From assembly GCA_903879985.1 (NCBI GenBank), contig CAIRNR010000004.1:32762-96761 (forward strand): a stretch of DNA of 64,000 nucleotides. Reading direction: 5' to 3'. The notes under the pieces were generated by a model. It was not told where the DNA came from. It was given only the letters and a program-made list of their open reading frames with translations, and did no database searches. Position numbers and translations under genes: made by a program. Numbering within the stretch: the stretch's first letter is position 1; each line of letters begins with the position of its first letter. The stretch is from an uncultured candidate division WWE3 bacterium. Lineage in GTDB: Bacteria > Patescibacteriota > WWE3 > UBA101185 > UBA10185. Of the stretch, positions 3,018-62,805 are shown one piece after another.

Positions 3018-3461
3018 TTGCCTCAGATGAAAAATATAAAAATATATCAATATATAGCAGCATTTCAAGCCTTAATAGCAATGCTTGGAAGTTTATACTT
3101 TAGTGAAATCTTGCATTTTATTCCGTGTTCGTTGTGTTGGTACCAACGAATTTGTATGTATCCGTTAGTAGCACTCATTTCAGTAGGTATTATTTTTAAA
3201 GATAAGAACTTTTACAAATATGTTTTACCCCTAAGTATTATCGGTTGGGGTATATCTTTGTACCACAATCTTTTGTACTTTAATATTTTGCCAGAAACCG
3301 TGACAGGAAAATGTTTGATTGGTGTGTCGTGTACATTTAGATATGTAACTTTTTTTGGCTTCGTAACGATTCCTTTGCTTTCGTTTCTTGCCTTTACTGT
3401 TATAAATATTTGTATGGGAATATCCGTTAAGTTACAAAAATCTTCTGTTGAACAAATTTAA
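3018..3461 (+). CDS. bdbC: Disulfide bond formation protein B (BdbC-type DsbB).
   Basis: The N-terminal half is near-identical in pattern to Bacillus BdbC: MLGSLYFSEI..FIPCSLCWYQRICMYPL. It has four TM helices and a second Cys pair, CLIGVSC. Confidence 0.8.
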   Translation: MPQMKNIKIYQYIAAFQALIAMLGSLYFSEILHFIPCSLCWYQRICMYPLVALISVGIIFKDKNFYKYVLPLSIIGWGISLYHNLLYFNILPETVTGKCLIGVSCTFRYVTFFGFVTIPLLSFLAFTVINICMGISVKLQKSSVEQI

Positions 3462-12298: not shown

Positions 12299-12342
12299 AA
12301 AGCAGGCTCGTGTTTATTAAACATTAGCCTGCTATTTTTTTA
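12299..12342. terminator. Bidirectional intrinsic terminator.
   Basis: Hairpin AGCAGGCT-(17 nt)-AGCCTGCT flanked by A-runs and T-runs on both sides. It lies between convergent genes. Confidence 0.6.
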
Positions 12343-12355
12343 CTTCTCCCCTATT

Positions 12356-12598
12356 CTATTCCTTTAACAATGGCCACTCTCCTGCATTAACGCCATCCAT
12401 GATAACCAAAATGATGCAATTGTTTGGTACATCAAGGTAATATCTGTGGCCCGGTGTTCCAAAATCCGCGATATCTTTTGTTAGCATATCGCCACGCAGG
12501 TATCTGGTATATCCGGCACTCTTTGCCTGTGCAATGATCCCAGCTTGATCTGTTACCAGATGCTGCAAATGCGGAGGAATCGTCACGACGAATGGCAT
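12356..12598 (-). CDS. Hypothetical 80-aa protein, the last gene of the ECF transporter operon.
   Basis: It is co-oriented with ecfT and only 20 nt downstream of it. No motif was recognised. Confidence 0.3.
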   Translation of the reverse strand: MPFVVTIPPHLQHLVTDQAGIIAQAKSAGYTRYLRGDMLTKDIADFGTPGHRYYLDVPNNCIILVIMDGVNAGEWPLLKE

Positions 12599-12618
12599 AT
12601 CAAACTCCTTTCCCTTTC

Positions 12619-24957: not shown

Positions 24958-25668
24958 ATGGATGATAAAAACGAGACGTACGAAATTTTCATAAAAGAGT
25001 TTATGGTACTTCGTCAAAAATTGATAAGTGTTTTTATTTTATTCTTCGCCGGATCGGCTATAGGATTACTTTTTAATCAACAAATATTAAAATTGGCACT
25101 CAAAATATTTAATTTCAGTGGTGTTAACATGGTTTTAACTTCTCCAGGGCAAATGATTGAAATTTCTATTTACACTGCTGTGTTAACAGGCCTGTTTTTT
25201 GCCACTCCTGTGCTAATATATCAAATTTACATGTATATTCGACCTGCATTTAAAGATAAGGAATATCACTTAATTATGTCTTTTGTTCCTTTGAGTCTTG
25301 TTCTTTTTATTTTGGGAGGAGCTTTTGGTGTTTGGATTAATCAATTAATGCTTGCCCTTTTTTCTAAATTTTCCAGCGACTTTAGACTGAATAATATTTG
25401 GGATTTACAACGATTTTTCTCTCAAGTAATTATGACAGCAATTTTGACCGGGCTTTTATTCCAAATGCCTTTGTTTTTATCTGCGCTAATAAGATTCAGA
25501 TTGTTGTCACGACAGCTTTTAGTGCAAAAAAGAAAAGTCGCATATGTTATCTTGTTAATAATCGCAGTTTTGCTGCCACCCACTGACATTTTGTCCTTAC
25601 TTATTCTTACAATTCCACTTATACTATTATATGAATTAACTTTGTTTTTAAATGTTGGACAACCTTAA
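24958..25668 (+). CDS. tatC: Sec-independent protein translocase TatC.
   Basis: It has 6 TM helices and TatC-type motifs, LTSPGQ and the YMYIRPAFKDKEY loop (compare F-I-x-P-G-L-Y-x-x-E). Confidence 0.7.
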   Translation: MDDKNETYEIFIKEFMVLRQKLISVFILFFAGSAIGLLFNQQILKLALKIFNFSGVNMVLTSPGQMIEISIYTAVLTGLFFATPVLIYQIYMYIRPAFKDKEYHLIMSFVPLSLVLFILGGAFGVWINQLMLALFSKFSSDFRLNNIWDLQRFFSQVIMTAILTGLLFQMPLFLSALIRFRLLSRQLLVQKRKVAYVILLIIAVLLPPTDILSLLILTIPLILLYELTLFLNVGQP

Positions 25669-28800: not shown

Positions 28801-29819
28801 TGACGCAATTAAGTTCTATTAAGCTTGAAATGGGAGAACTTAAATCATTAGTCGCGCAATCAGCGTCATCTAAGAATTTATTAGGATTTGTTGGCGGCGC
28901 ACAAGTTTCATCTATTTGGGGAATCGTGTTTGTATTACTCGCTGCCTTTGGATTTATTTTGATTTATACCAAGTTCTTGCTGGGTGCATTTAAACCTAAA
29001 GGAAAAGTTAAAAATGAGGTTCAGGAAACAACAACCAGCATTGGAATGCCCGATTTACCAGAACAAAAGAAAGTACTTCCAAATATTGTGTTGCCAGCTT
29101 TACCAAAGCCAACATTTGCTAAACTATCGATGAATGTCCATGTACTAAAATTGGTATTTATATCTGTAGCTTCATTTGCTGTAATGGGTGCAGGCGTATG
29201 GTTTATGTTAACAAGATTAACGCCAAGTAAACCTGTGTCTGTTCCACAAGAAATTAAAAAGGAAATAACACCTACGGTAGCTGAAGAACCAACTAATGTT
29301 GATTCTGCACCAAACGAAACTCAGATAACCACAGAAAAATCTGTATTGGGAGCTCAAAGTACAAATGTAGTAATCACAATTCCTTCATATTCCGACGGCG
29401 TAAATGTACGACAACAACCTGATATTACTTCTCCAGTATTAATTAGATATAACAAGGATACAGAGGTAATAAAATATTCTGAATCTGGAACTTGGACAGA
29501 AGTAGGAATAGATTTAACAGTTGCTGGTGTTAACTACACCCGTGGTTGGGTAAGCACTGGTTTAATTACAGTTCCTTCTTCCGTAAAGGTTGTTGCACCG
29601 GCAGATACCGATGGAGTAAATGTTAGAGCAAAGCCCGGATTAAGCTCTGACGTTATTGGTATCACTCCAGTTGAGTTTAATACAGTTAAATATGGTGAAT
29701 CCGCGGACGCCGATTGGGTTGAGATAGAAGTTGATATGAAAAAAGATGATACTAAATACACAAGAGGCTGGGTTAATAAGCAGTTTGTACAAAAAGCTGA
29801 ATCTACTCCATCATTATAA
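25869..29819 (+). CDS. Giant (1316 aa) secreted repeat protein with two late TM segments and tandem C-terminal SH3b domains.
   Basis: It has a Sec signal peptide, a Cys-rich head, about fifteen 22-aa repeats (VTSAVTGSQGLVIANQNSNTGT), a long helical or coiled region, two hydrophobic segments (around 28.90-28.97 kb and 29.13-29.21 kb), then two SH3_3-like modules (DGVNVR...YTRGWV, twice). Confidence 0.6.
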   Translation: MKNVRMPKSLKVLIFGVLFSILYVGAASKVMAAPAEYQRCGRGGSCEIGEFLYDDSYSPITTAGICILTSRTSSGSVYADPPSIMTSSSAGDGWYSSNWTVGGAQTEGLYPTTVCCTPVGENKICIDKSFVIGTTLLSGSEVANAVWDSQTSDHTGAGTFGNVLGNILYNIWNYGTRSLTSATLALGEQLAVKSEVNSSITASQTAVTSAVSGSQGLVIANQNSNTGTVTSAVTGSQGLVIANQNSNTASVNSAVAGSQGLIIANQNSNTGTVTSAVSGSQGLIIANQNSNTDSVNSAVTGSQGLVIANQTANTSTITGWITSTLAALQAAILGQQSSDTSSLAGTVTSAMSGSQNAIIANQNSNTDTVTSAVTGSQGLVIANQTANTNTITGWITSTLASLQAAILGQQSSDTSTLAGTVTSAVTGSQGLVIANQNSNTGTVTSSVSVAQNAIIGNQNSATGVITGAVSSSVSAAQGAILGQQTSDTSTITGAITAGTGTVTSAVSGSQGLIIASQSAATGTITGAVSSSVSGAQAAILGQQTSDTSTLLAQMLADKTYLGNAVTSSQSAIMGPSAKNLTQIATGVSGLQSTADSISTKVDSLQTSIGTVDTNVDSLITNWNNLDLSQVSSAMSAISTSLGTISDGCASTTTVFGDIRCLKDKWGVQDASSLYNAANNAYTTSIALQGELDYNQKSTTAYKDLQNLKTYVLALQTSLGTEADAATVPTIFGRIKKSQDTLANLNTSGTGLDDLLSKWGSYDAADIYNKVKNLSDDIEKVNTVPDVDSILKLSKQNSSDMKELKNTTYALKAVVDVNRVLLDKFSNSPIVKTWLEDGSVIFKTLITNPSTISKQTVPLKFYLPKETRKEDLIKVDTGLNVEFDSKEDAFFVSGLFPLNPGETKIVAVEVKDVWKINTTELDSLRMQAEDLSVPLKDSSFFAQGVTLKSDIVVRLDDIKRLQSEAYTPEDRIKTFRDNMTQLSSIKLEMGELKSLVAQSASSKNLLGFVGGAQVSSIWGIVFVLLAAFGFILIYTKFLLGAFKPKGKVKNEVQETTTSIGMPDLPEQKKVLPNIVLPALPKPTFAKLSMNVHVLKLVFISVASFAVMGAGVWFMLTRLTPSKPVSVPQEIKKEITPTVAEEPTNVDSAPNETQITTEKSVLGAQSTNVVITIPSYSDGVNVRQQPDITSPVLIRYNKDTEVIKYSESGTWTEVGIDLTVAGVNYTRGWVSTGLITVPSSVKVVAPADTDGVNVRAKPGLSSDVIGITPVEFNTVKYGESADADWVEIEVDMKKDDTKYTRGWVNKQFVQKAESTPSL
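26470..27510 (+). repeat. In-frame tandem repeat array with a 66-nt (22-aa) period, about 15 units with degenerate spacers.
   Basis: Direct reading: VTSAV[ST]GSQGL[VI]IANQNSNT[GD][TS] repeats, interspersed with ITGWITSTLAALQAAILGQQSSDTS units. Confidence 0.7.
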
Positions 29820-33624: not shown

Positions 33625-34338
33625 TTATTTAGTGTATACGTCAGACCAATTTCCGGTCTTGCATCCGTTAATGGTTCTCATTTTCCAGTAGCCACCGAAC
33701 CATCCAAGAATAGATCCGAGCCCTGTTTTTTCGTGGCCGTCGTTTTTTAGTGTTAATTTAAATGGTAAAAAGGTTTTGGAATATCCAAAGTTTAGTTCAA
33801 CTTTGTTTCCGCCAACAGCAGACCATGTAAGTTGTTCAGTTTGAGAATTGTAACTGGACCATGTTATTAGTGGTGGTTTTGAATCTAGGCAACGTGTATC
33901 TTTTTTAAATGTGTGCGTTGGTTCAGTCGGTGGCGCAAGGAGCGTAAATGTCCACGTGGTATCTGCTTCTGTCATACACGATGGCGAGGATACAGAATAA
34001 TCGTCATTAAGTACGCAATTTGTTCTAAATAACACTGCTCTTATTCTGTGAGTTCCCCCACCGAATGTTTGATTTTCTACAGTCCAATTTCCTTGAGTAT
34101 TAAAAACGTGAAAATTAGTTATAGTATCTATATAAACGACTAATACGTTGCTACTATCAAAGCCTGATGTACCTGTTATATCCACTGGAGCATTAACTGT
34201 AGGTTGTGTTGACTCGTTAATTGATACCTCTAAACTTGGACGGGCATATGTTTTTGAAGTCATTGTTAGAGATAGTAAAAACACTATGGTTAGTGTTTTG
34301 AAAAGTGAAGATTTTATTTTAAAAGAATTAACAGACAT
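33625..34338 (-). CDS. Secreted protein carrying the shared TFKKDTRCL plus Cys-bracketed C-terminal module (subtype 2).
   Basis: It has a signal peptide. The C-terminal 95 aa are homologous to the C-terminus of the 61429..62805 product (FKKDTRCL...GWFGGYWKMRTINGCKTG). Confidence 0.45.
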   Translation of the reverse strand: MSVNSFKIKSSLFKTLTIVFLLSLTMTSKTYARPSLEVSINESTQPTVNAPVDITGTSGFDSSNVLVVYIDTITNFHVFNTQGNWTVENQTFGGGTHRIRAVLFRTNCVLNDDYSVSSPSCMTEADTTWTFTLLAPPTEPTHTFKKDTRCLDSKPPLITWSSYNSQTEQLTWSAVGGNKVELNFGYSKTFLPFKLTLKNDGHEKTGLGSILGWFGGYWKMRTINGCKTGNWSDVYTK

Positions 34339-36253: not shown

Positions 36254-37222
36254 TTACTTCTTTTTGGGTTCTGCTGTTGCATCACATTCGCCTGGCATCA
36301 GCGAAGTGCAACCTTGCTGCAGGTTTTGAAGGGCGGCCAGCGAAGGTGTGGTAATCATTTTACTGTAACCTTCAGCAGCCGATTGATACAGTGTGCAAAT
36401 TCCTGCCACTGAATCCAAAGATACGCCATACATATAGGCATATTTTCCGGCGGGTAACATCGCGATGCCTTCGGGAGTGCCATCGTGAATTGCCTGGTAT
36501 TGCGAGCAAACTTTCATATCGCGGGTTTCAGCCTGCAGCGCTTTTGTGGGAAATCCCATAAACTGCGCCGGCAGAACCTGGTCAGCATTTTGTGATCCAA
36601 CAAATGTGGCAAAAGCTTTGTCGCCACTTTGGATCAGTTTCTGAATATCGGCGCCGTACTTATTATAAAAATCAATAATCACGGCTGTCTTCAGATCGCT
36701 AAGTTCCAGGTTTGAGATTTGACCATCAATCCTGAAAATTTCTCCTTTGATGTTCATGGCCTGAGCACGGTTTGATCGCATGTATACGGCGATATTTGTC
36801 GCGTGCTTTTGGCATTCCGTCACATCCCCAGGATAGGTTTGATTAACATGCAGCATATTCAATAGCGCCGGCGTTTCCTGGCCCATGCCCTTATCGCCAA
36901 ATGCGCCCGTTAAAGCTGCAATAAAGAATTCCTGCGAGTTGCTGTAGCAAAGTTTCATTACAGCCAGCTCGTCTTTGGTCTCAGACTGTGCATTTTCCAT
37001 TTGGGTTGTGTACAGTTTGAGTTGCTTCGTTTTCTCCACATCAAGGGCGACATGGGCGCTGTAAACTTTCGCAGCCTCCATGTACGCGATTTTCATTTCC
37101 TGCGTAAACTGTGTGGCTAACGGCGCAGGAGACGGTGCGGGAGCACAGGCGGATACCAGCATCATCAAAGTGATGAGCGTTACAAAGAGCAAATACGGAA
37201 TTTTCTTAAAATTGAGTTTCAT
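36254..37222 (-). CDS. Lipoprotein, function unknown (GC-elevated).
   Basis: The signal peptide has the lipobox LVSAC. The product is 322 aa with several Cys. Confidence 0.4.
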   Translation of the reverse strand: MKLNFKKIPYLLFVTLITLMMLVSACAPAPSPAPLATQFTQEMKIAYMEAAKVYSAHVALDVEKTKQLKLYTTQMENAQSETKDELAVMKLCYSNSQEFFIAALTGAFGDKGMGQETPALLNMLHVNQTYPGDVTECQKHATNIAVYMRSNRAQAMNIKGEIFRIDGQISNLELSDLKTAVIIDFYNKYGADIQKLIQSGDKAFATFVGSQNADQVLPAQFMGFPTKALQAETRDMKVCSQYQAIHDGTPEGIAMLPAGKYAYMYGVSLDSVAGICTLYQSAAEGYSKMITTPSLAALQNLQQGCTSLMPGECDATAEPKKK

Positions 37223-37248: not shown

Positions 37249-39039
37249 CTATTGATGAGTCCAGACAATAAGTCCGAACAAGACGCCACACACTAACTCG
37301 ATCACGAGAATAAGTGTTGGCCAGAACGTAAATCCCCCGGTAATTGCCGCTTGTTGTGAAACAGCTGCGGAAATCACTTGGTTTATTTCGTCCTGAGATA
37401 ATACAACGCGGTCGATGAGGTAATTGAAGTTATCCTCCATTGAGGGCTTCTTAGCGCCATACCTTTCCCAAAGTCCCATAGGGGTTCCTTGAGTACCGGT
37501 TAGGCTCAGTTTGCCATCGGCGGCGATGATTAAAGCGGGCTTTCCAAAAAACCCTTCCGGTGTAAACGGAATTTTCTGTAGTTCATCTGGAATACCGGAA
37601 GCCATAGCCTCTTTCAAGGTTTCGTTTCCTATGGGGAGTCCAGACATTACACGGCATCCTGCTGGTTTAATATAGCGGCCATCAGGTCCATTACTGACAA
37701 CGCACGTCGTCAGAATGGTGTTTTGCTGCATAATCGTGTACAGCGTTTTATCGCCGAACACTTTTTTCCACTTGCCGTTGTAGAGATCAGCCCGCATATT
37801 GTAGACGAGATCATCCAGCGAAACGCCCGTGGCATTCAATTCTTCCTCGGAAACAAACGCAAACGAGTTTGAAATATGCAGTACGTTGCCGTAGTACATG
37901 TTCACGTTCTGCGCGTCGGTGGTAAAACCGGCCCAGTCAACATTTTCGGCTCCAAATTTACCGAGTGGGTAAACAAAGTCAAAGTAAGTTGGCGTGTTTC
38001 CTTTGGCGGGGCTGTACAAATCGCGTGGCTCCAGCAGCATGTGTGCCGCTTGTAGCTTTGCAATGATAGCGGGATCACCAATAAATCCGGCGTTGGCGGT
38101 AGCCAGCAGTGGATTTGAATATTGGTGCCAGGACGTGGATCCTCGAGTCGTCTGTAAATTTACGTAATACATCCAGTCGACAGGAGCTGTGTAGTCGACC
38201 ATGTTGAATTTTGTCCTGAAATTTGAATACCAAAGGTCCTGATAATTTGGAGGAAGCATCCATCCAGAAAAAAACATCAACGGGTGGTTTGCATTTCCAG
38301 CATCTGGTACCAGGTTTGTTTCGGGTGTTGCGTATATGTCGGGTAGGTTAGATTGCCCTGCGTAGCGTAAAAGTGCTTTAACGTCAGGGTCGTGTTGATG
38401 GTGCCATCTCGTTTCCCAGTCATTACAAGTATCGTCGTCGTCGTCCCAACCTACGCATACCTGATACGGATCCACATCGTACACGTGCTCGAATTCCGGG
38501 CATGTGCTGTCAGCGTCTCTATTGCCAGTACAAACTTTAACCAGCATAGAGTTTTTGGTGAGATCGACACCTTGAAGAGGCAGCATTTCCGTGAACGTAT
38601 AGTTCAGCAGTTCTGCATACCTCATTGAAACTTCCGCTTTCTTTGCTGCAAGCCCTCCTTGGGATGCAGAATCCGCAGCCTTAGTCACCTCTCCCGGCGC
38701 CCGTTCCGTAATGGATTGGTACGTCGAAATTGACGAAAAGGTTGCGATAACGAAGAAAACGGCTGATATGCCCATGAATGCACCAGCTCCGGAATTTGCA
38801 GCAAAAAACGCCGCAATGATAAGCCCGGTAACAAGGATAGCCAAAAACACCAAAAATGGTGCCCAGTCGGCTGCCCCACGCCAGAGTGCCATGGATTGAT
38901 TATATGTCTGAGTCCAGACATATCTTAAGCTCGAGTTTCCTGATACCGTTGTGTCCGCCATAGTTGCCGGAGAGCACGAAACAGCAAGGAAAATGAGCAA
39001 TCCTAGGATCGCATAAATCCTTCTTTTCTTATCTTTCAT
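37249..39039 (-). CDS. Large (596 aa) secreted protein with an N-terminal signal, two TM segments near the N-terminus and a C-terminal TM anchor; function unknown (GC-elevated).
   Basis: The ORF has a Trp/Tyr/Asp-rich ectodomain and a hydrophobic C-terminal helix. It is 26 nt from the lipoprotein gene. Confidence 0.4.
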   Translation of the reverse strand: MKDKKRRIYAILGLLIFLAVSCSPATMADTTVSGNSSLRYVWTQTYNQSMALWRGAADWAPFLVFLAILVTGLIIAAFFAANSGAGAFMGISAVFFVIATFSSISTYQSITERAPGEVTKAADSASQGGLAAKKAEVSMRYAELLNYTFTEMLPLQGVDLTKNSMLVKVCTGNRDADSTCPEFEHVYDVDPYQVCVGWDDDDDTCNDWETRWHHQHDPDVKALLRYAGQSNLPDIYATPETNLVPDAGNANHPLMFFSGWMLPPNYQDLWYSNFRTKFNMVDYTAPVDWMYYVNLQTTRGSTSWHQYSNPLLATANAGFIGDPAIIAKLQAAHMLLEPRDLYSPAKGNTPTYFDFVYPLGKFGAENVDWAGFTTDAQNVNMYYGNVLHISNSFAFVSEEELNATGVSLDDLVYNMRADLYNGKWKKVFGDKTLYTIMQQNTILTTCVVSNGPDGRYIKPAGCRVMSGLPIGNETLKEAMASGIPDELQKIPFTPEGFFGKPALIIAADGKLSLTGTQGTPMGLWERYGAKKPSMEDNFNYLIDRVVLSQDEINQVISAAVSQQAAITGGFTFWPTLILVIELVCGVLFGLIVWTHQ

Positions 39040-41346: not shown

Positions 41347-42660
41347 CTATTTATTCTTTTTTCCTTTATCCTCCTTATCTCCTTTTTTATCACCGCCGCC
41401 GTTGTTTTGACCTGTATTTTGGTCGTGATTCTGTTGGCCTGCGGGTTTGTCGGGTTGATGATTTTCAGCAGGTTTCACAGATGTGTCATTTTTGGGTTTA
41501 TCTGTGTCCTGATGATCACCGCCGGATGGTTTTTGGTCGGAATTATTCCCGGGTTTATCGTTGTTTCCGGGTTTCCCTTTGTCGTCACCACCTGGCTTGC
41601 TACCGTTATCGTTGGGTTTACCATCGTTGCCGGGTTTTCCCTTGTCGTCGCCTGGATTCTTGTGATCGTCATTGCCAGGTTTATCCTTATCCCCATCGCA
41701 TGGTTTTGTGGGTTCTACATGCTTTGTGGGTTCGGGAGATTTGGTCGGCTTTGGCTGCTCGGTCGGCTCGTGAGTTTTGGTTGGCGCTGGTGACTTAGTC
41801 GGACAAGGATCTGTCGGCTTTGGCTGCTCGGTCGGCTCGTGAGTTTTGGTTGGCGCTGGTGACTTAGTCGGACAAGGATCTGTCGGCTTTGGGGGCTTGG
41901 TCGGCTCGTGAGTTTTGGTTGGCGCCGGTGACTTAGTCGGGCAAGGATCTGTCGGCTTTGGAGTCCTAGTAGGCTCGTGAGTTTTGGTTGGCGCCGGTGA
42001 CTTAGTCGGACAAGGATCTGTCGGTTTAGGAGTCCTTGTTGGTTCGTCAGTTTTGGTCGGCTCGTGAGTCTTCGTGGGCTCCGGGGACTTAGTCGGCTCG
42101 TGAGTCTTCGTGGGTTCTGGTGATTTAGTCGGTACACCTGTGCCGGTTTTAGTTGGCTCCGGAGTTGGTGTATCTGTCTTTGGTGCGGTTGTGCCCGTTG
42201 GAGTGTAAGTAGGAGCAGGTGTGGGCGTATCCGTTTTCGGCGCGCTGGTGCTTGTCGGTGTGTACGTTACCACTGTTTTGGTAATGGTTCCGGTTGGCGT
42301 CGGTGTGTAAGTTGACGTAGGTGTCGGAGTCGGCGTTGGGGTTGCGGTGTTTGTTGCCGTTTCAGTCATCGTGGTTGTTACAACTGGCGTAACGGTCGTA
42401 GGTACCTGAGTTGGGCATCCACAATTGCAACAGCAGCAACAACAACAGCAGCAAGAATTGCCACCGTTCTGATTCTGCGTCCGATAGGATGCGGAAACAT
42501 TCATCTGCGCCGACGTTGGGTTATTTTGGCTCGTGGTGGTAAGTAAAGTTTTCGGCATACTTGAAGCAACGATTGTTGCACCGATTACAATTCCACCACC
42601 GATGAACACGCTCGAAAGTACAAGCGCGAAGGCCAGTACAATAGCATTAAATTTGCTCAT
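41347..42660 (-). CDS. Secreted low-complexity Thr/Pro/Lys-rich repeat protein with a poly-Cys tract.
   Basis: The likely start is the second Met (MSKFNAI...), which has an AAAGGA RBS. It has a signal peptide and the tract CCCCCCCCCNCGC, followed by a T/P-rich region, then 23-aa repeats (PTDPCPTKSPAPTKTHEPT...) and a KPGNDD/KGDK-rich tail. It is GC-elevated. Confidence 0.5.
   Translation of the reverse strand: MSKFNAIVLAFALVLSSVFIGGGIVIGATIVASSMPKTLLTTTSQNNPTSAQMNVSASYRTQNQNGGNSCCCCCCCCCNCGCPTQVPTTVTPVVTTTMTETATNTATPTPTPTPTSTYTPTPTGTITKTVVTYTPTSTSAPKTDTPTPAPTYTPTGTTAPKTDTPTPEPTKTGTGVPTKSPEPTKTHEPTKSPEPTKTHEPTKTDEPTRTPKPTDPCPTKSPAPTKTHEPTRTPKPTDPCPTKSPAPTKTHEPTKPPKPTDPCPTKSPAPTKTHEPTEQPKPTDPCPTKSPAPTKTHEPTEQPKPTKSPEPTKHVEPTKPCDGDKDKPGNDDHKNPGDDKGKPGNDGKPNDNGSKPGGDDKGKPGNNDKPGNNSDQKPSGGDHQDTDKPKNDTSVKPAENHQPDKPAGQQNHDQNTGQNNGGGDKKGDKEDKGKKNK
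41715..42140 (-). repeat. 69-nt tandem DNA repeat array (about 5-6 units) encoding 23-aa Pro/Thr/Lys repeats.
   Basis: Direct reading: GGCTGCTCGGTCGGCTCGTGAGTTTTGGTTGGCGCTGGTGACTTAGTCGGACAAGGATCTGTCGGCTTT is reiterated with few substitutions. Confidence 0.7.
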
Positions 42661-42869
42661 CTCATTTTCCTTTCTTTTGTAGTCATGGGTTTTCAAAGTT
42701 CCGAATTTGTCTTACCTGAAACGTTTAGTCCTCTTCAATAATGCCTCCTTTTTATCTCTTTATGTTTGATTATTCACGGGATATTATCATGCTATAGGGC
42801 CTTAGTCAAAAAAAAGAAAGGCACCAGAGATGGTATAAACCACGCAATGGTGCCTTTTAATAACTCTAG

Positions 42870-45459: not shown

Positions 45460-47496
45460 TTATTTTATATTGTACCAACCGTTTTGGAAGCTATCGGCCG
45501 AAACAGGAACGCTATACTCTCCGCTTTTGCAGTGATTTATTGGTTTAATTTTTATATTCTGCCAACTTGCAACGTTTGGCAAAAATTCATGACCGTCATT
45601 ACTCATATTTGAAATATTCCATGGATAATTTCCGGTGCCATCATCTATTTTTACAGAAATTTTATCGGCACCATATTGAGTCCAAATTAAGTTCATGCCC
45701 GATACACCGTTTACTGTTGCCGGTTCTAATTTAATCCAAGTCGTTTTTCCTGGTTTACTCCATAGGCAGCGTGTATCTTTTTTAAATGTTTTAAAGCTTG
45801 CAGCTGCTGACTGTGTTTCTGAATAACTAAATTCTTGTACGCGACTTCGTGCGTTATCAGTAACAAAAACGTTTTCATCCTTATCTACAACTATTCCGTA
45901 AGGTTTATAAAATTGGCCAAGATCTATACCTGGAGTGCCATAGATTTGCCACGTATTACCGTTATACATTTGTATACGACTATTAAAATCGTCAGCGACA
46001 TATAAATTCCCGAGTGAATCAAAAGCAATATCTGAAGCGCCTTCAAATTGTCCTGGATCAGAACCTTCTCCTTGGGCAACAACGTTCCAAGTTGTACTAC
46101 CCACGGGTAAAACGCTAATACTACTGTCTCCAGAAGAAACAACGTAAACATCACCATTTTCAGCTATAGCAATGCCCACAGGATTATCAAATGTTGTGTC
46201 TGTTCCTAATTCAGTCCATGTATCGTTTATATATTCATAAACTTTTCCGAAATCTGTATCCGTAACATAGACATTGTCGTTTTTATCAACAGCTATTCCC
46301 ATTGGAGTATCTAATACCTCGTTAGAATTTTGAAAAATGGACCAGTCTTCCCCATTGTAAGTCATTACGTTTCTGTTTTCCGGATTTGTAACATAAATAA
46401 CTCCGTGAGAATCTACCGCAATACCATAAGGCATAAAATCTTCTCTGTCCTCAGTTGTAGAAATAGTTGACCAGTTTGTGCCATCGAACACTTGTATTTG
46501 GTTATTAGTTGAATCAGACACATAAATATGACCATTTTTATCAGTGGCTATTTTGGTTGGGTTATCAAACTTTCCTGCTCCAGTGTAACCACCATATGTT
46601 GTTAGCTCATCTTCAAAAATATCGTATTTGATTATAGAATGTGCTCCTGTGTCTGCTACAAATATATTGTTACCATCTGGAGTTACGGCTATTCCGTAGT
46701 TGTAGTCAAAACTACCTGACAAAACTTCTGACCAATTTTCGCCATCAAATCTTACAATTCGGCCATTAGATGTATCAGATACATATACTTCTCTGTTGTT
46801 ATCTACGGCTATTCCTGAAGGGTATGATAGTGCTCCGATTCCGCTACTAGCACTATCGAATGCGTGCCAATCGTTACCATCATACATTTGGAATCTTTGG
46901 TTCATTGTGTCTATTACGTAAAGTTTATCTAGTGGATCAATAGCAATTTGACGAGGACTGTTAAATTGTCCAACACCCGCTCCGGAAGTGCCTATTATTG
47001 TCCAGGTCTCTCCATCAAACTTTTGTATACGATTATTCCCTTGATCTGATACATAAATATTTCCTTGTGAGTCAGTTACAACGCCATAAGGTTGGTTAAA
47101 CTCTCCTAGCCCACTTCCACCACTTCCAATTATTACCCAAGTTTCACTTGTAGCATCGTATTTTTGAATTTGATTGTTATAGGTATCTGCTACGTAAACA
47201 TTGTCATTTGTGTCAACGAATACTCCAAACGGAGTGTTCATATTTTGTTGATCTGAATTAGCAAAAATTGTCCACGCGGAGTTTTCATATCTTATTATTC
47301 TGTTATTTCCGGAGTCAGCTGCATACATATTTCCATGGCTATCTAATGCTACAGAACGTGGTTGGCTAAAAAGAATTTCGGGCCAGGCTTTAATTGTTGA
47401 AGGGTGGGTAAAGTCAATTGCAGCGTAAGTCTTTGCGTTAAAAAAAACGCAACTACATGCTACAAACACTAGCAGTTTAAGATAAAAAGGTTTCAT
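45460..47496 (-). CDS. Secreted NHL-repeat beta-propeller protein with the shared C-terminal module (subtype 1).
   Basis: It has a signal peptide and about 10 NHL-type repeats (YAADSGNNRIIRY, YVADTYNNQIQKY, YVSDQGNNRIQKF and others), then FKKDTRCL plus a 95-aa C-terminal module ending NHCKSGEYSVPVSAD. Confidence 0.6.
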   Translation of the reverse strand: MKPFYLKLLVFVACSCVFFNAKTYAAIDFTHPSTIKAWPEILFSQPRSVALDSHGNMYAADSGNNRIIRYENSAWTIFANSDQQNMNTPFGVFVDTNDNVYVADTYNNQIQKYDATSETWVIIGSGGSGLGEFNQPYGVVTDSQGNIYVSDQGNNRIQKFDGETWTIIGTSGAGVGQFNSPRQIAIDPLDKLYVIDTMNQRFQMYDGNDWHAFDSASSGIGALSYPSGIAVDNNREVYVSDTSNGRIVRFDGENWSEVLSGSFDYNYGIAVTPDGNNIFVADTGAHSIIKYDIFEDELTTYGGYTGAGKFDNPTKIATDKNGHIYVSDSTNNQIQVFDGTNWSTISTTEDREDFMPYGIAVDSHGVIYVTNPENRNVMTYNGEDWSIFQNSNEVLDTPMGIAVDKNDNVYVTDTDFGKVYEYINDTWTELGTDTTFDNPVGIAIAENGDVYVVSSGDSSISVLPVGSTTWNVVAQGEGSDPGQFEGASDIAFDSLGNLYVADDFNSRIQMYNGNTWQIYGTPGIDLGQFYKPYGIVVDKDENVFVTDNARSRVQEFSYSETQSAAASFKTFKKDTRCLWSKPGKTTWIKLEPATVNGVSGMNLIWTQYGADKISVKIDDGTGNYPWNISNMSNDGHEFLPNVASWQNIKIKPINHCKSGEYSVPVSADSFQNGWYNIK

Positions 47497-54276: not shown

Positions 54277-55800
54277 TTAGTTTAAGTTGTACCAACCACC
54301 AGGAAACTTGTCGGCTGACACAGGAACACTTTCAACTCCTGATTTGCAGTGATTTTTTGGTTTGATGGCTATGTTCTGCCAGCTTTGTACATTTGGTATA
54401 AACTGATGGCCATCGTTTGTTGAGTCAGCTATTCTCCATGGATAGTTTCCTGTACCATCGTCAATTTTTATTGAGACTTTGTCGGCACCATATTGTGTCC
54501 AAGTTAAATTTACGCCTTTTACTCCGTTTATTGTTGTAGCTTCAGCTTTTATCCAAGTTGTTTTAACGGGTTTGCTCCATAAACATCGTAGATCTTTGTT
54601 AAATGTTTTAATCGTTGTTTCACTCGATATTGAGCCTCCAATGGAGTCATCGTAAATCGCTACTCTATTATTACCTGAATCTAAAACGTAAAAATTTACG
54701 CCGTCGTTACCTAATGCAGATGGCTGATTGAATCCAGCAGAATTTACTGATTCACTATTATTGTTTGTGTTGTTAGATACAAAATCCGGTTGGCCTAAAA
54801 CTCCAGTAGCATTTTGGCCATTTTGTGTGGGCAAAGTATCCCAAATTAATACTCTATTGTTACCTGGATCGCCAACATACAAAACATCATTTTGAATTAC
54901 TATTCCCATAGGGTATGCAAGTGTATTAGCTGCGGGAAGATCATGTCCCCTGTTAACCTCGTAACCTGTAAAGTCTTCCTGTCCTAGCACTAGATCTGCT
55001 TCTTTATCATTCGAGTCCGGAATTGAGTTCCAGATTAGTACTCTTTGCATGCCTCCATCGGAAATATATAATTTGCTTTTATATACATAAATACCATTCG
55101 GTCTGTTAATAGACGTACTGGAGCCATAAGTATCTGCAGCTGACGTAAGTGTCGCAGCACCTAAAACTAGATCTGCGTCTTGACCATTTTGGTTAGGAAG
55201 TGTTGTCCAAATTAAAACGCGTCCGTTGTTTACATCGGAAACGTATAAACGTGTACCGTCGTAAAATACTGTCATTGGTGTACCCATGCTGTTGGCCGCG
55301 GGATCTTCCCCTCTGTTGTAGCCTACACTTAGCATGTTATCCTGTCCCAAAACTAAATCTGCTGTGCCTGCAACGGTATCTTCAGTGGGAATCTCATTCC
55401 ACATCAAAACTCGATTATTAAAGGTATCGGTTACAAACAATTTTGTATTGTCAGTAAAAACTCCCATTGGTCCGTTAAGTCCAGTAATTACAACATCATA
55501 AGGTTCTTCGTTTGTGGTTGGAATGTGATCCCAAATTATTACCCTGTTATTTATGGCGTCAGCTACAGCAACATATTTATCGGTAACACACAAATCGCCC
55601 GCCGGACCTTCCCCCATGACATTTAAATTTCCGCTTTCTAGTGTTCTATCAATTAGTGAACTGGAGTTAAGTGCGGCTGCCGAAACATTCGGTGCAAAAC
55701 AAATAGCTGTTAAGATTATTGAGAAAATTGTGAATGAATGGGCAAATCTCTTATACATTGAATTAATTATAGAAGTTAGGTCTTTAGTGTAAATAGACAT
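54277..55800 (-). CDS. Secreted NHL-repeat beta-propeller protein with the shared C-terminal module (subtype 1 paralogue).
   Basis: It has a signal peptide and NHL-type repeats (FVTDTFNNRVLMW, YVSDVNNGRVLIW, YVGDPGNNRVLIW, YVLDSGNNRVAIY), then FNKDLRCL plus a module ending NHCKSGVESVPVSAD. Confidence 0.6.
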   Translation of the reverse strand: MSIYTKDLTSIINSMYKRFAHSFTIFSIILTAICFAPNVSAAALNSSSLIDRTLESGNLNVMGEGPAGDLCVTDKYVAVADAINNRVIIWDHIPTTNEEPYDVVITGLNGPMGVFTDNTKLFVTDTFNNRVLMWNEIPTEDTVAGTADLVLGQDNMLSVGYNRGEDPAANSMGTPMTVFYDGTRLYVSDVNNGRVLIWTTLPNQNGQDADLVLGAATLTSAADTYGSSTSINRPNGIYVYKSKLYISDGGMQRVLIWNSIPDSNDKEADLVLGQEDFTGYEVNRGHDLPAANTLAYPMGIVIQNDVLYVGDPGNNRVLIWDTLPTQNGQNATGVLGQPDFVSNNTNNNSESVNSAGFNQPSALGNDGVNFYVLDSGNNRVAIYDDSIGGSISSETTIKTFNKDLRCLWSKPVKTTWIKAEATTINGVKGVNLTWTQYGADKVSIKIDDGTGNYPWRIADSTNDGHQFIPNVQSWQNIAIKPKNHCKSGVESVPVSADKFPGGWYNLN

Positions 55801-56069: not shown

Positions 56070-57419
56070 TTGTATAATAAGAGAGTGATACCTAACATTT
56101 TTTTCTTTGAGACAAAACCCTTTATGGCAGTTGAGATGCTGGACGTCCTAAAAGACAATTTTTACTTGCTTTCCTATTTTGCTAATGATAGTTATGAAAA
56201 ACTTAAAGATTCCGGCTATCTGGTTAAAACATATGGTAATACCTCAGTCGAGATAGACTACGATAACGCTTTACTTAATACTCTTAAAGATACTAACTTT
56301 ATTAATAGCTATATAACTACCAAAGATTACGTTTTGTTCTTTGGTATGAATGAAAAAATGGATGCGACCCTTAAGAAATTACGTATAAAAATGGCACTGC
56401 CAGAGCTCTCGGTCCAAGAAAAATTAGGAAATAAGTTGGTTCTGAATGATATGTGTAAATCATTAGGCATAGAGGTTAATAAGTCCCTAGAATTTACCAA
56501 AACACCAATTGATACAGAAAAACTTTATTCCGCTTGTACAAATGAGTTAGGCTTACCTTTTATTATTCAAGGTGGTCATGGTGCGTCTGGTGCTGATACA
56601 TCTTTAATAAATAATCTGGAAAGTTTTACTGTAAAAATATCTAAATTAGGTAACACTTTTAAGGCGAGCAGGTACATTAGTAAACATATTCCACTATCCA
56701 CGCATATATGCATAACTAAAGACAAAATATATTCTGAGGGACCATTTGTACAGCTCCTAGGTTTTAAAGAACTTGCCATAAATCCATTTCAGTTTTCAGG
56801 TAATGATACAAACCAAAGTTGCATACACAAGGATATAAAGAAAAAGGTTTTGCAATATAACAAAAAAATAGCGGATTATGCGAAGAAGTTGGGATTTAAA
56901 GGAATTATGGGTATTGATTACCTTTGGGATACGCAAGAAAACAAAGTTTTCGTTCAAGAAATAAATAGTAGATTAGTTGGATTAACTAGGTTATTAACAG
57001 GCATTCAAAAGGAACAAGGTATAACCCCGCATTTATTGTTACACCTAAATGAGTTTGTGCCTCTTGATGAATATATTAAGGAATCAGTTAGTAAGTCTCT
57101 GGACAACAGAAATTATTCTCAAGTTTATATTTCATATAACGTTACTGAGGTGAAAAATGTAAAAAATAGCATTACGCCGGGAATCTACGGGTTGGTTAGC
57201 GGTAAACTGAAAATTTTAAGCAGCTCGCTTTTTGTAAAAGACATGACGGTAGACGATATTCTAATAACTATGACTGTGCCAAAAGGAATGGAAACCTATG
57301 AAGATCAGGTATTGCTGAAGATAATTCTTAAAAAAAGTGTATTAGAAAATAATAAATATGAACTTTCGAAAGAATTTAAGGATTTGGTAGGTTTATTACG
57401 TAGTGAACTGTTAGACTAA
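56070..57419 (+). CDS. ATP-grasp fold protein (carboxylate-amine ligase-like; substrate unknown).
   Basis: The 449-aa product has VFVQEINSRLVG, resembling the ATP-grasp E-x-N-x-R Mg-binding motif, and a Gly-rich HGASGAD loop. Confidence 0.4.
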   Translation: MYNKRVIPNIFFFETKPFMAVEMLDVLKDNFYLLSYFANDSYEKLKDSGYLVKTYGNTSVEIDYDNALLNTLKDTNFINSYITTKDYVLFFGMNEKMDATLKKLRIKMALPELSVQEKLGNKLVLNDMCKSLGIEVNKSLEFTKTPIDTEKLYSACTNELGLPFIIQGGHGASGADTSLINNLESFTVKISKLGNTFKASRYISKHIPLSTHICITKDKIYSEGPFVQLLGFKELAINPFQFSGNDTNQSCIHKDIKKKVLQYNKKIADYAKKLGFKGIMGIDYLWDTQENKVFVQEINSRLVGLTRLLTGIQKEQGITPHLLLHLNEFVPLDEYIKESVSKSLDNRNYSQVYISYNVTEVKNVKNSITPGIYGLVSGKLKILSSSLFVKDMTVDDILITMTVPKGMETYEDQVLLKIILKKSVLENNKYELSKEFKDLVGLLRSELLD

Positions 57420-58226: not shown

Positions 58227-59285
58227 ATGAAAGTTTTGATAAAACTTGTTTTAGCTTTTGCAGTTTTGGTTATAGGAGTATTATTTCTGACCGGTGTTCT
58301 TAACTTAAGTTTGTTAATGAAAAGTGTTAAATATTCTGCAAGTCCCCAAGGTAATACCTATTTCACAACTGGCAGCGATTACGAGGGGAATTACGTTTTT
58401 GGTGGAGCGATGCAGTTGGCCATTAACGAGCTTAATGCCAATATTCTTCATAGCAAGTTACAACTAAATTTATCTGCAAATGATGTAGAAACCCGACGAA
58501 TACTTAATATCTTTAACAAAGCAGAATTTACCACAAATGATTTAGACCTACAAAGTTACTACGTTAAAAGTGGTTATGGTGAGCAAACGATAACAGCCAT
58601 AAATACAGAGTCAAAGGCAAAATTTCCAAACAAGTCATTTAAGGATCTTATGCTTTCGCTTTCACCAAGAGATATTATTTCTTATGCCTATTTTTTAAAA
58701 CAGGTTGCATACACAATCCCATTTACGTCCAACTATACAACGTTTCTTAATGAAAGTGTAAAGGGTTATAAAGCTACTTCTGTTGATCAAAAAAAGAATG
58801 TACAAATAGTAGACTATAAAAGCGGCGATAACTTTATAGTTAAATTGGAATTAAAAGACAATAGCGATGAGCTTTATTTGGCTAAAGGGTATGACATGAC
58901 AAACCCTTTAGATGCGATAAAAACTATAAACAGCAATATTTTGAGAACTACTATGGCGGAGGATGATATCTTTTACGCTCCGGAAATTCATTTAGATATG
59001 AATAGAAACTATTTTGGTTTTACGGGAAAAAGCTTATTAAACAATGGTTTTAATGATTACGTAATCAGTTATATGTACGAGGATATTAAGTTCGATATGG
59101 ATAATGTTGGAGCACGCGTTGAAAACCAGGCGGTTTTTGGTGGCGCTATTACGGGTTTACCTGAAAAACATACGTTCAAAAGTTTGGAGCTTGATAAACC
59201 TTTTTGGGTAATTATGAAAAGAGCAAACAGTTATAATCCTTACTTTGTGCTTGGCGTGAAGAACTCCCAAATAATGTTTAAGTAG
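58227..59285 (+). CDS. Membrane-anchored serpin-like protein (inference).
   Basis: It has an N-terminal TM helix. The C-terminus FKSLELDKPFWVIMKRANSYNPYFVLGVKN resembles the serpin C-terminal consensus (F-x-x-D/N-R/K-P-F-L/W-F/V-x-I...P-x-F-x-G-x-V). Confidence 0.3.
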   Translation: MKVLIKLVLAFAVLVIGVLFLTGVLNLSLLMKSVKYSASPQGNTYFTTGSDYEGNYVFGGAMQLAINELNANILHSKLQLNLSANDVETRRILNIFNKAEFTTNDLDLQSYYVKSGYGEQTITAINTESKAKFPNKSFKDLMLSLSPRDIISYAYFLKQVAYTIPFTSNYTTFLNESVKGYKATSVDQKKNVQIVDYKSGDNFIVKLELKDNSDELYLAKGYDMTNPLDAIKTINSNILRTTMAEDDIFYAPEIHLDMNRNYFGFTGKSLLNNGFNDYVISYMYEDIKFDMDNVGARVENQAVFGGAITGLPEKHTFKSLELDKPFWVIMKRANSYNPYFVLGVKNSQIMFK

Positions 59286-59297
59286 TAAAATTAAGCT

Positions 59298-60287
59298 ATG
59301 TTAGCTGCAATACCTGCCGAATCTAAAAATGAAACAGCGCAGATCGAATATGAACCTTCTGTAGTTAAACTTATAGAAAACTTTACCCAAGAAATAGAAA
59401 CGCCAGCTTCAAATTATTTTGGTATTAAACCAGAAGCTGTTGTTGTTATTCAAGAGCAATTATCCGACATTGGTATCATGCCACCTAAAACCGATCTTAA
59501 GAAAATGAGAACTTATTGTGCCGATCTTAAACCGGAATTGCAAAAATTTGTTTATGCAGGAACCGAAGCTGACGCAGAAATAAGCTTATTTACAGGAACT
59601 GTAGAGGTAGATATATCTAAAACACCAAAAGCACCACCAGAAGAAGTACACGATCGTGATGGAAAATTAATTGCTCGCTTACATCCGGGAAGAGGCGCCC
59701 GCGACGAAAGATTAGTTTTAGGTCTAAATAGATTCGATGTTATACTTCCGAATACAGAAATTAGGAGTAGCTCCGTATTCCCACACGAAGGAGTTTTCAA
59801 TGGTGATTTAACTATAGTATCTTTAGATCCACAAATGGAAGTTCCACATGGCCTTTTATCAATTAATGCTGAGATGCCTTCCCACCACCGAAATCATATT
59901 TGTATAACAGCATTAGAACATGCAAAAACTAGAAAAGTAATTCCCACAGCAGCTGAAGTTTATGGTAGCTCTGCCCTAGGAGCGCAGGCATATTACACAC
60001 TAGAAGGTAAACCTCATTCTATTGCGTCATACTTTAAAGTTAATGGTGCACGCGCATTTGGTGTTTATTATCAAGGATCATCTGAGGAAGCAGCTTATAA
60101 ATGGATTGGAAAAGGTAGAGATGAAGTTTTTGTTGGTGAAAAGCCGGAAGTAACTGTTGAAGCTGGTGTTGTTTCAGTAAAAAGAGGCGGTTGTGAGTAT
60201 AAGTTTGATGCTGAAATTGATGTGGATGGTATGCTCAAAAATATTTCAAATAATTTGTTAAAGAAGTTGAATGTTTTGGATTTGTGA
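59298..60287 (+). CDS. Hypothetical 329-aa protein.
   Basis: It lies 12 nt after the serpin-like gene. No motif was recognised. Confidence 0.3.
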   Translation: MLAAIPAESKNETAQIEYEPSVVKLIENFTQEIETPASNYFGIKPEAVVVIQEQLSDIGIMPPKTDLKKMRTYCADLKPELQKFVYAGTEADAEISLFTGTVEVDISKTPKAPPEEVHDRDGKLIARLHPGRGARDERLVLGLNRFDVILPNTEIRSSSVFPHEGVFNGDLTIVSLDPQMEVPHGLLSINAEMPSHHRNHICITALEHAKTRKVIPTAAEVYGSSALGAQAYYTLEGKPHSIASYFKVNGARAFGVYYQGSSEEAAYKWIGKGRDEVFVGEKPEVTVEAGVVSVKRGGCEYKFDAEIDVDGMLKNISNNLLKKLNVLDL

Positions 60288-61428: not shown

Positions 61429-62805
61429 TTATAAGTGATAAATTTGTGACCACGGGCCTATTTTACACCCATTAATTGTGCGCATCTTCCAGAAGCCCCC
61501 AAACCATCCCATAACTGTACCAACACCAGTTTGGATATGCCCTGTGTTTGGTACTTTTACTGTAAACGGAAGCTCTGTGTTACCCCAACCAAATTTTATT
61601 TCTACTGTATCTCCTGAATATGCGATCCAAGATAAAATATTAGTAAGTGGGTTGAACGTGGATCTTGCTACTGCTGGAGGTGTTATTCCTAAGCATCTGG
61701 TGTCTTTTTTGAAGGTGTTACTTTTTACATGCCTTTCCGATTGAGACGATTCCGAGGATTCAACCGCTTCCAAGCTTCCCCTAATAAGTTGTTCCTGATA
61801 ATGCGGATCTTCATACGAACTTAAGCTTCCGAGGATATAGATACTATCACCAAAGCTCACGGAAGCTGCCCAAAATACGCCAGCAGGAAGTGTTGCAGAA
61901 TCTAAAGTCCATGTAACATCATTACCGTTAACTGTACCCACATATGCGGTGTCTAAACCAGCCATACCTTGTCCAAGTCCGCCAATCATATAAATATCGT
62001 GGTTTAGTATAGTTGGAGACATGAGAATCCTATTGTCTGGAAATCTATCGCTACTTTGATGCCAGGAAATTTCCCCATTTTCAAGCGTTCCCGTATAAAC
62101 TAGTAATATTTGTTCTTCTTGATCGGGAGTAATAATAAATATTTTATTTCCGTCCGCTACGGATTCGAAAATCGGAAACATGGACATTACCACGGTAAAA
62201 GGTAACGAAGTTGAATCGGTAGTCCAAGTAATATCTCCATCAGAAATGGTTCCAATAAAGCCATTCGCTTGTGCATGACCCTCAAGAGTATATCCACCAG
62301 CATAATAGACGTGGTCGTTATCAATTGCTACAGCTCCGCCGGCAAATGCTTCTGGCAGCGTGTGTGCACTTGTTGTCCAAGTAATATCACCGTCGTTAGT
62401 AAAAGTTCCTATGTATACAGCATCGGAAGTTGTATCAGCTAAAGATCCTCCAATTACGTAAATTGTATTTCCATCTACTAAGGTGCTACCCAACGCTATG
62501 CCACCAGGAAGGTGATGAGAACTTATTGTCCATGTAATGTCACCGTTATCGGCTACAGTGCCAATGTTAATAGTATCCAACATGTTGTTATCCCAATCCG
62601 AACCTCCGATAGCATATATTTTTCCGTTGTGCGTCGCGGTTATATAACCCATCACCGATCCAGGTAAACTGTTTGCGTTCTTCCAAACCATATGTTCGGT
62701 TGCGGCTTGTGATTTAAGTGGGGTAAATGTAATAAGAGCTGCGATTATAGCTACAAAAGAAAAGCTTTTAAGATAGGCAGAATACTTAATCATATGTGTA
62801 TACAT
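61429..62805 (-). CDS. Secreted Kelch-like/beta-propeller repeat protein with the shared C-terminal module (subtype 2).
   Basis: It has a signal peptide and five or more repeats of [ND]GDITWT...LP...G...I[YV]..GG, then FKKDTRCL plus a module ending GWFGGFWKMRTINGCKIG. Confidence 0.5.
   Translation of the reverse strand: MYTHMIKYSAYLKSFSFVAIIAALITFTPLKSQAATEHMVWKNANSLPGSVMGYITATHNGKIYAIGGSDWDNNMLDTINIGTVADNGDITWTISSHHLPGGIALGSTLVDGNTIYVIGGSLADTTSDAVYIGTFTNDGDITWTTSAHTLPEAFAGGAVAIDNDHVYYAGGYTLEGHAQANGFIGTISDGDITWTTDSTSLPFTVVMSMFPIFESVADGNKIFIITPDQEEQILLVYTGTLENGEISWHQSSDRFPDNRILMSPTILNHDIYMIGGLGQGMAGLDTAYVGTVNGNDVTWTLDSATLPAGVFWAASVSFGDSIYILGSLSSYEDPHYQEQLIRGSLEAVESSESSQSERHVKSNTFKKDTRCLGITPPAVARSTFNPLTNILSWIAYSGDTVEIKFGWGNTELPFTVKVPNTGHIQTGVGTVMGWFGGFWKMRTINGCKIGPWSQIYHL

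Follow-up and report, generated by a model that had tools for sequence, protein, structure and literature searches.

A divergent fibronectin type III module with a conserved cysteine pair ends diverse secreted proteins of Patescibacteria and may dock them at the cell surface

Four secreted proteins encoded in a 64-kb stretch of DNA from a WWE3 Patescibacterium (hereafter the window, meaning the whole stretch analysed), among them the 678-amino-acid (aa) product of the gene at 45460-47496, end in a shared module that we place as a new, lineage-restricted variant within the known fibronectin type III (Fn3) fold. The family to which it belongs is confined to Patescibacteria (also called candidate phyla radiation, CPR) as well as a few phage contigs. 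We suggest, at a probability of roughly 45%, that the module is a common envelope-proximal docking or pedestal domain, by which secreted proteins of many kinds are retained or positioned on the surface of these monoderm cells. In our reading it is not itself a cleavable recognition signal for a sorting enzyme, and we find no evidence for a new sorting system. Patescibacteria make up a large and mostly uncultivated share of bacterial diversity, and a docking domain of this kind would reveal how their cells keep secreted proteins in place without SLH domains.

A C-terminal module shared by proteins with unrelated bodies

The window contains 592 six-frame open reading frames (ORFs). A preliminary description of this DNA had reported four secreted proteins with a common C-terminal module, and four ORFs match its coordinates exactly, all of them on the minus strand and all with a hydrophobic N-terminus that resembles a Sec signal peptide (KTYA/A, VSA/A, SQA/A), as judged by eye from the sequence. 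The four genes and their modules, which fall into two subtypes, are as follows.

33625..34338, minus strand: gene for a 237-aa secreted protein with a signal peptide (by eye), a body of ~105 aa and a subtype B module
33628..33912, minus strand: subtype B module of this protein, 95 aa, TFKKDTRCL ... GWFGGYW ... NGCKTG
45460..47496, minus strand: gene for a 678-aa secreted protein with a signal peptide (by eye), 12 NHL repeats and a C-terminal subtype A module
45463..45789, minus strand: subtype A module of this protein, 109 aa, TFKKDTRCL ... NHCKSG ... GWYNIK; a predicted divergent Fn3 domain with a Cys-bearing N-terminal extension
54277..55800, minus strand: gene for a 507-aa secreted NHL-repeat protein (Pfam NHL, E = 5.5e-11) with a subtype A module
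54280..54606, minus strand: subtype A module of this protein, 109 aa, TFNKDLRCL ... NHCKSG ... GWYNLN; 74% identical to the 45463-45789 module
61429..62805, minus strand: gene for a 458-aa secreted Kelch-like propeller protein (Kelch models) with a subtype B module
61432..61716, minus strand: subtype B module of this protein, 95 aa, TFKKDTRCL ... GWFGGFW ... NGCKIG; 55% identical to the 33628-33912 module

The likeness among the four modules is far above chance. BLASTP aligns the two subtype A modules at 64% identity over 138 aa (E = 2e-57), the two subtype B modules at 54% over 95 aa (E = 7e-36), and the two subtypes with one another at 35% over 97 aa (E = 3e-13), while a hidden Markov model (HMM) built on the four modules matches only those four among all 592 ORFs. 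Each module opens with the junction motif TF[KN]KD[TL]RCL, which reads TFKKDTRCL in three of the proteins and TFNKDLRCL in the other, and each has a second cysteine towards its end, set in NHCKSG (two proteins), NGCKTG (one) or NGCKIG (one). Subtype A, found in both NHL proteins, measures 109 aa from the TF motif to the stop codon and has a ..GWYN.. end; subtype B, found in the Kelch-like and the small protein, measures 95 aa and is marked by a GWFGG[YF]W insertion. Identity between modules of the same subtype is 55-74%, and the bodies that precede them are 21-35% identical or unrelated.

Those bodies had been described as two NHL, one Kelch-like and one small domain, and Pfam agrees. The NHL match of the 45460-47496 protein has E = 2.6e-70 and covers 12 stretches, from which two six-bladed propellers would be expected; the ScyF-like NHL model of NCBIfam also matches this protein, partially, below its cut-off and within the NHL body only. 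Pfam models of the Kelch family match the body of the 61429-62805 protein at E = 2e-7 to 1e-5. No match to the 237-aa protein (33625-34338) was obtained in the Pfam or NCBIfam scans, and an identical copy of it occurs on 9 public contigs.

The preliminary description was right about all four paralogues and missed a fifth, which lies ~1.2-2.1 kb past the right end of the window and was found on a sister contig (L028, 7426-8754, plus strand). It encodes a 442-aa secreted Kelch-like propeller with a subtype B end (HKTFKKDTRCL ... GWFGGYW ... NDCKVG), and the genome carries at least five module genes in ~33 kb. Local clustering of paralogues is not peculiar to the window, since another CPR-like contig (L023) has module genes at 8168-8653 (plus strand, 161 aa) and 12212-14170 (minus strand, 652 aa), 3.6 kb apart. 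The 652-aa gene bears the precomputed label 'Pur_ac_phosph_N (weak)', which may stem from the module.

The claim that the domain had gone unrecognised holds for current profile libraries: no Pfam or NCBIfam model matches the module in the four whole proteins at E ≤ 1, and the isolated modules, scanned against Pfam at E ≤ 10, give only a chance-level SH3_19 match for subtype A (E = 0.15) and none for subtype B. Furthermore, full-text literature searches returned no description of it. The module, being unannotated by current Pfam and NCBIfam models, merits a profile of its own, e.g. a Pfam entry in the Fn3 clan.

Family size, cargo and distribution

A word-indexed homologue search returned only 6, and then 11, short proteins, and an exhaustive profile search of 1.84 billion cluster representatives (clusters at 50% identity) was needed to reveal the family. 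The latter yielded 144 representatives at E ≤ 1e-3 and 98 at E ≤ 1e-10, and conservation of the module therefore reaches well past the paralogues of the window, to about 100 such clusters from several CPR lineages. Diversity of cargo, earlier proposed from the four window proteins, is likewise borne out on this larger scale: the module follows more than 10 unrelated kinds of cargo, with Pfam assigning FG-GAP and GLUG to 6 members each, NHL to 5, Peptidase_S8 to 3, and Ice_binding and Kelch to 2 each, alongside PD40, DUF5122, Big_5 and many bodies for which Pfam offers no match. A signal-peptide-like N-terminus is present in 71 of 86 members with an initial Met. The module thus provides a sequence marker for a class of probable surface proteins (NHL, Kelch, FG-GAP, GLUG, subtilase and others), including candidates for host attachment.

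Placement of the module is highly regular. One full-length copy is present in each of ~100 representatives and two in none, and in all members with a full module it is the last folded domain. No more than 22 residues follow it in 86 of the ~100, two of which have a sortase-type tail that is truncated. About 15 of 100 representatives (P0014, P0016, P0027, P0030, P0032, P0034, P0035, P0038, P0047, P0049, P0059, P0082, P0101, P0103, P0104) and 3 of 17 genomic loci (L003, L004 and L009 (about 4300-4630)) run on for 49-101 residues past the module, where a serine/threonine (S/T)-rich linker leads to a [LMV]P[DEN]TG motif, then to a hydrophobic helix and lastly to a basic tail, in the tripartite architecture of a sortase substrate. 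At least three subgroups of the module have such tails, in the variants MVP[DE]TG, VPATG, LP[DN]TG and NLDTG. Their cytoplasmic part is unusually well conserved, most tails holding the motif R/K-x-x-A-[LI]-[RK]-x-F-E-[KR]. The LPXTG models of NCBIfam give no significant match to the tails (best E = 0.1), and so 'sortase-type' is used here as a description of architecture only.

The 17 genomic loci come from a census of one genome per GTDB species, scanned with the subtype A alignment, a choice of query by which subtype B is under-counted. All 17 belong to Patescibacteria (WWE3, Saccharibacteria, Nomurabacteria, Moranbacteria and unclassified members), and a single complete WWE3 genome of 897 kb holds three module copies. 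The window itself is likewise of WWE3 lineage, as judged from TypA, which is encoded on its contig and is 72-77% identical to named WWE3 proteins. On a Candidatus Moranbacteria contig (L001; PFVN01000078.1, 869-1534, plus strand), a 221-aa secreted ORF with a full module is read through a gap of Ns; the 95-aa database protein P0005 is an artefact of the N run in the same contig.

Fold and cysteine pair

The last 95-110 residues of these proteins are predicted to fold as a strongly divergent Fn3 β-sandwich, in keeping with the Fn3/Ig-like character first suspected from sequence alone. AlphaFold2 models, made from family alignments with one model per subtype, have a predicted local distance difference test score (pLDDT) of 94.5 and a predicted template modelling score (pTM) of 0.81 for subtype A, and 94.0 and 0.79 for subtype B. 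Foldseek searches with the model return Fn3 domains at a probability of ~1.0 and a template modelling (TM) score of ~0.5. Moreover, an end-to-end alignment is obtained, at 10-17 bits for each repeat, between the family profile and tandem repeats assigned by Pfam to Ig_Rha78A_N or fn3. Scanning 93 isolated modules against Pfam, we find fn3 to be the most frequent family, in 3 of 93 and weakly (best E = 3.2e-4), followed by DUF6150 in 2, and fn3 is the sole recurrent Pfam family of known fold. The modules of the window show no match to fn3 (PF00041) at E ≤ 10 and fall outside that curated family, to which only sequences at or above its gathering score belong.

In the models the sandwich spans ~90-100 aa with strand order A-B-C-C'-E-F-G, and the hallmarks that it shares with the E-set type β-sandwiches of Fn3 (PF00041, and Ig_Rha78A_N, PF25788) can be placed on strands assigned by DSSP of the AlphaFold2 model: an invariant W40 in strand B (LTW), L74-P75 ... 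W80 at the E-F corner (L-P-x-x-x-x-[WY]), and N89 ... G94 ... S97 in the F-G loop (N-x-x-x-x-G-x-x-S). Unlike other Fn3 domains, the module has a ~20-residue N-terminal extension with the motif TF.[KE]D.RC, which precedes strand A and whose cysteine is co-conserved with a second in the F-G loop (N-x-C-K-x-G). It also differs in the invariant N-D-G-H turn between C' and E, in never being found in tandem, in always being the last folded domain, and in its restriction to Patescibacteria and some phage contigs. Across lineages, N68 and G70 are invariant in the family alignment, while D69, N89, C12, C91 and P17 are conserved at ≥90%.

Two conserved cysteines had been noted in the four window proteins, and in the family this pair is complete in 92 of 93 modules, with the sole exception lacking both; exactly two cysteines are present in 85 of 93. 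Such a pattern suggests that Cys12, in the extension, and Cys91, in the F-G loop, are most likely joined in a disulfide that would arise outside the cytoplasm. In the Fn3 topology the N-terminus and the B-C, C'-E and F-G loops lie at one pole, and because the N-terminus and the F-G loop would share that pole, a Cys12-Cys91 bond is geometrically natural. By analogy with this topology, such a bond would clamp the N-terminal extension to the pole that bears the N-D-G-H turn. A possible source of the bond, also pointed out in the preliminary description, is encoded in the window.

3018..3461, plus strand: gene for a DsbB-family membrane protein (Pfam PF02600, E = 6.9e-11), annotated as DsbB on a sister contig

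DsbB represents a capacity for extracytoplasmic disulfide formation and could make the Cys-Cys bond of the module; its gene lies 30-58 kb from the four module genes and is not physically linked to them.

A discoidin/CBM32 fold (F5_F8_type_C, a jelly-roll of ~130-150 aa) was also considered for the module and rejected. The profile of alignment A2 matches, over its positions 9-73, the PDB entries 2rv9_A, 4zxe_A and 4zy9_A at E of about 1.5e-3, which are CBM32/discoidin carbohydrate-binding modules of Paenibacillus glucanase/chitosanase; the match covers the N-terminal two thirds of the module, with the common pattern tR...P.Wi...v..v.l.W...a..i.v.dg..W. Pfam finds no such domain on the modules, both AlphaFold2 models match Fn3 and not discoidin in fold searches, and the resemblance to these PDB entries is perhaps due to chance. 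Known sorting and anchoring domains were sought as well, and no match to Por_Secre_tail (TIGR04183), LPXTG, PEP-CTERM, SLH, SH3b, LysM, CWB2 or Big_2 was found in the four proteins and 93 modules. Neither in the window proteins, therefore, nor among the isolated modules does the family coincide with one of these annotated domains.

A putative docking domain at the envelope

Considered together, the presence of a single copy, its terminal position, the variety of cargo, conservation above that of the cargo, invariant polar loops and the occurrence of several paralogues point to a cargo-independent docking module rather than to an ordinary Fn3 spacer. Under the mechanism that we propose, the module would hold or position its cargo, most likely by putative non-covalent binding to a shared envelope component, and the linker and sortase-type signal that follow it in ~15% of members would serve as an additional or alternative anchor. 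The module appears to occupy an 'anchor slot', because homologues of two of the cargos carry other anchors elsewhere: ScyF-like NHL proteins carry PEP-CTERM, and P0011 carries 'choice-of-anchor' GloVer repeats. Two candidate faces may be proposed for binding. The first, common to both subtypes, is the putatively stapled polar pole formed by D9, R11, N68-D69-G70-H71-E72 and N89; the second is an aromatic-rich C-terminal pole that differs between subtypes, comprising DDGTGNYPW, SWQ and YP.GWYN in subtype A and GWFGGYW in subtype B. In the sortase-tailed members it is the aromatic C-terminal pole that faces the cell.

The function that we infer for the module, C-terminal and cargo-independent retention at the envelope, is analogous to that of SLH, SH3b, LysM, CWB2 and GW modules. 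Unlike these domains, which are usually repeated, the module is single-copy, and it is unrelated to them in fold and sequence. The same organism also has classical SH3b-type modules, which are commonly wall-binding, since SH3_3 domains stand at the C-terminus of two window proteins, one of 1316 aa (25869-29819, plus strand), the rest of which has no Pfam match, and one of 198 aa (19503-20099, plus strand). According to one study, CPR form a monoderm clade in which the SLH/CsaB system of anchoring has been lost (10.1101/2021.05.31.446380), a loss that would leave room for another anchoring domain.

Several points weigh against docking. The conserved polar pole may be purely structural, e.g. through packing of the stapled extension, and both the Cys-Cys distance and the exposure of the conserved residues are deduced from Fn3 topology. 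Retention of the sortase-tailed members could proceed without any binding by the module, and these members fit a passive stalk equally well. Moreover, the ~84 members without an anchor could simply be released as soluble proteins. Binding, localisation and a partner at the envelope are all putative.

The main rival explanation, which we regard as possible though somewhat doubtful, is that of a passive, disulfide-clamped stalk: the Fn3 domain would end the chain, or space the cargo from a wall-spanning linker, with no ligand of its own, and untailed members would be released. Fn3 domains are often spacers in bacterial secreted proteins, and the ~15 tailed representatives place the module directly before the S/T-rich linker and sortase-type signal, the usual place of a stalk. 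Additionally, no linked partner or processing gene was found among 64 window ORFs and the 10-kb flanks. However, Fn3 domains that act as spacers commonly stand in tandem and show poor conservation, whereas the module is strictly single-copy and terminal, is conserved far above its cargo, and has polar loop residues (NDGH) that stay invariant from one deep CPR lineage to another. Its presence on phage contigs, in small secreted proteins with almost no cargo to be spaced, also argues against a mere stalk.

A stronger form of the docking proposal, possible but on balance unlikely, is that the module is a Patescibacteria-specific anchor for non-covalent surface display, in which a stapled Fn3 domain would dock dozens of unrelated secreted proteins on a conserved envelope component (peptidoglycan, a wall polymer or the S-layer being candidates). 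The anchor would functionally replace the lost SLH/CsaB system, and CPR phages would borrow the module for their own small proteins on the host surface. One report describes cultivated CPR/Patescibacteria as all living attached to other microbes as episymbionts, and the molecular basis of host recognition and binding as largely unknown (PMC11623550). If it exists, such a display anchor would make it possible to list, from sequence, the proteome that CPR genomes devote to the surface and to host interaction.

The episymbiotic habit reported there for cultivated CPR also lends some plausibility to a different target, namely a host, prey or environmental glycan instead of the bacterium's own envelope, although we consider a carbohydrate-binding role improbable. 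Its attractions are the aromatic-rich C-terminal pole (YP.GWYN, SWQ and NYPW in subtype A, GWFGGYW in subtype B), the weak profile match to chitosan-binding CBM32 modules (E = 1.5e-3), and the appearance of the β-glucan-binding BhCBM56 among the Foldseek matches. The CBM32 match, however, is marginal and covers only part of a module that is Fn3, not discoidin, in both models. Moreover, the cargos already include typical ligand-binding propellers, so that there is no obvious need for another host-binding unit close to the cell, and of all domains in the sortase-tailed members it is the module that lies closest to the bacterium's own wall.

Sorting signals and processing enzymes

The module had at first been put forward as a candidate sorting or anchoring domain. 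Anchoring is plausible, as set out above, but the parallel with sorting tags such as LPXTG, PEP-CTERM and C-terminal domains (CTDs) belonging to the type IX secretion system (T9SS) is not supported: the module is a predicted folded Fn3 domain without a transmembrane segment or basic tail of its own, and in ~15 of 100 representatives a separate signal lies downstream of it. From these separate signals it follows that the module is not itself a sorting signal and need not be C-terminal. We therefore hold it to be very improbable that an enzyme or machine recognises the folded module and cleaves it, or attaches the cargo covalently, in the manner of T9SS CTDs and PorU. What speaks for such a signal is the terminal position on diverse cargo, the number of paralogues per genome, a near-invariant junction motif that might be a processing site, and a β-sandwich size class near that of T9SS CTDs. 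The junction cysteine is, however, co-conserved with the cysteine of the F-G loop, which favours a role as a structural staple over one as a cleavage site.

T9SS CTDs of Bacteroidota (Por_Secre_tail, TIGR04183 / PF18962) do resemble the module in being C-terminal folded β-sandwiches of ~80-100 aa, borne by unrelated secreted cargos and present as many paralogues per genome. They sit at the extreme C-terminus, unlike the module, which in ~15% of members is followed by the linker and sortase-type signal (see the representatives and loci listed above), and there is no sequence match between the two. No T9SS genes were seen in the 64-kb window and 20 kb of flanks, and, because CPR are described as monoderm (10.1101/2021.05.31.446380), with no outer membrane to cross, an export step of the T9SS type would have no place in them.

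Some relatives come near to sortase substrates of the LPXTG type, in that their module and linker are followed by [LMV]P[DEN]TG, then by a hydrophobic helix and lastly by a basic tail. The four window proteins differ from such relatives in stopping 0-12 residues after the module, and neither they nor any other window ORF shows an LPXTG-like motif with helix and basic tail. Similarly, none of the four proteins has a PEP-CTERM C-terminus, and no exosortase was found among the scanned ORFs. The preliminary description had called for a co-occurring processing enzyme to be sought, and this search came out negative: no gene of the sortase, exosortase or rhombosortase type was found among 64 window ORFs, in the two 10-kb flanks, or by a crude TLxTC regular expression.

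Least probable of all is a protein-protein assembly unit that would oligomerise, or dock by strand complementation on a filament or scaffold such as the Pam pili of CPR, since, although donor-strand-exchange pili made of Ig-like domains, whose membrane tether includes FnIII domains, have been reported in CPR (10.64898/2026.03.03.709456) and the G strand of our model is fragmented in DSSP, AlphaFold2 gives a complete and confident Fn3 sandwich rather than a strand-deficient fold, and no pam-like operon or chaperone gene was seen beside the module genes.

Module genes on phage contigs

The module also ends small proteins, secreted or tethered to the membrane, that are encoded on phage or phage-like contigs, as listed below.

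L026 (IMG/VR contig), 7647-8333: module gene (L027 is the same gene), with a terminase large subunit gene (2871-4190; PDB match, E = 3.4e-15) ~3.5 kb away
L022, 10001-10594: module gene between a tape-measure gene and RecT and portal genes, immediately preceded by an Amidase_2 endolysin-like gene with two tiny ORFs
L025, 7683-8279: module gene on a phage or phage-like contig
L002, 1-462: module gene on a phage or phage-like contig

The L022 protein consists of an N-terminal transmembrane helix, a Pro/Ser/Thr linker of ~70 aa and the module. One module contig carries genes for RecA, SSB and a methyltransferase. The INPHARED phage genomes gave no match to a subtype B module in tblastn, nor did PDB sequence searches with two large ORFs of the phage contigs give any. 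CPR phages may have borrowed the module.

Other genes in and around the window

The DsbB gene (3018-3461) stands downstream of FMN_bind-like, ApbE and ferric-reductase-like (FAD/NAD-binding) genes, an arrangement that occupies 9-3461 of the window (plus strand). Just past the right end of the window lies a gene with HMA and DsbD_2 domains, together with a copper-type P-type ATPase (31-3722 of L028), and a TatC gene is located at 24958-25668. We judge this extracytoplasmic redox and metal equipment to be notable in a CPR lineage with a small genome.

Pfam gives no match at E ≤ 1e-3 for six large ORFs of the window, 322-1082 aa in length, namely 20929-24177, 36254-37222, 37249-39039 and 41347-42696 on the minus strand, and 56070-57419 and 58227-60287 on the plus strand. 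Finally, base composition varies along the window, with a G+C content of about 0.43-0.45 at 35-45 kb compared with about 0.35 in the surrounding DNA.

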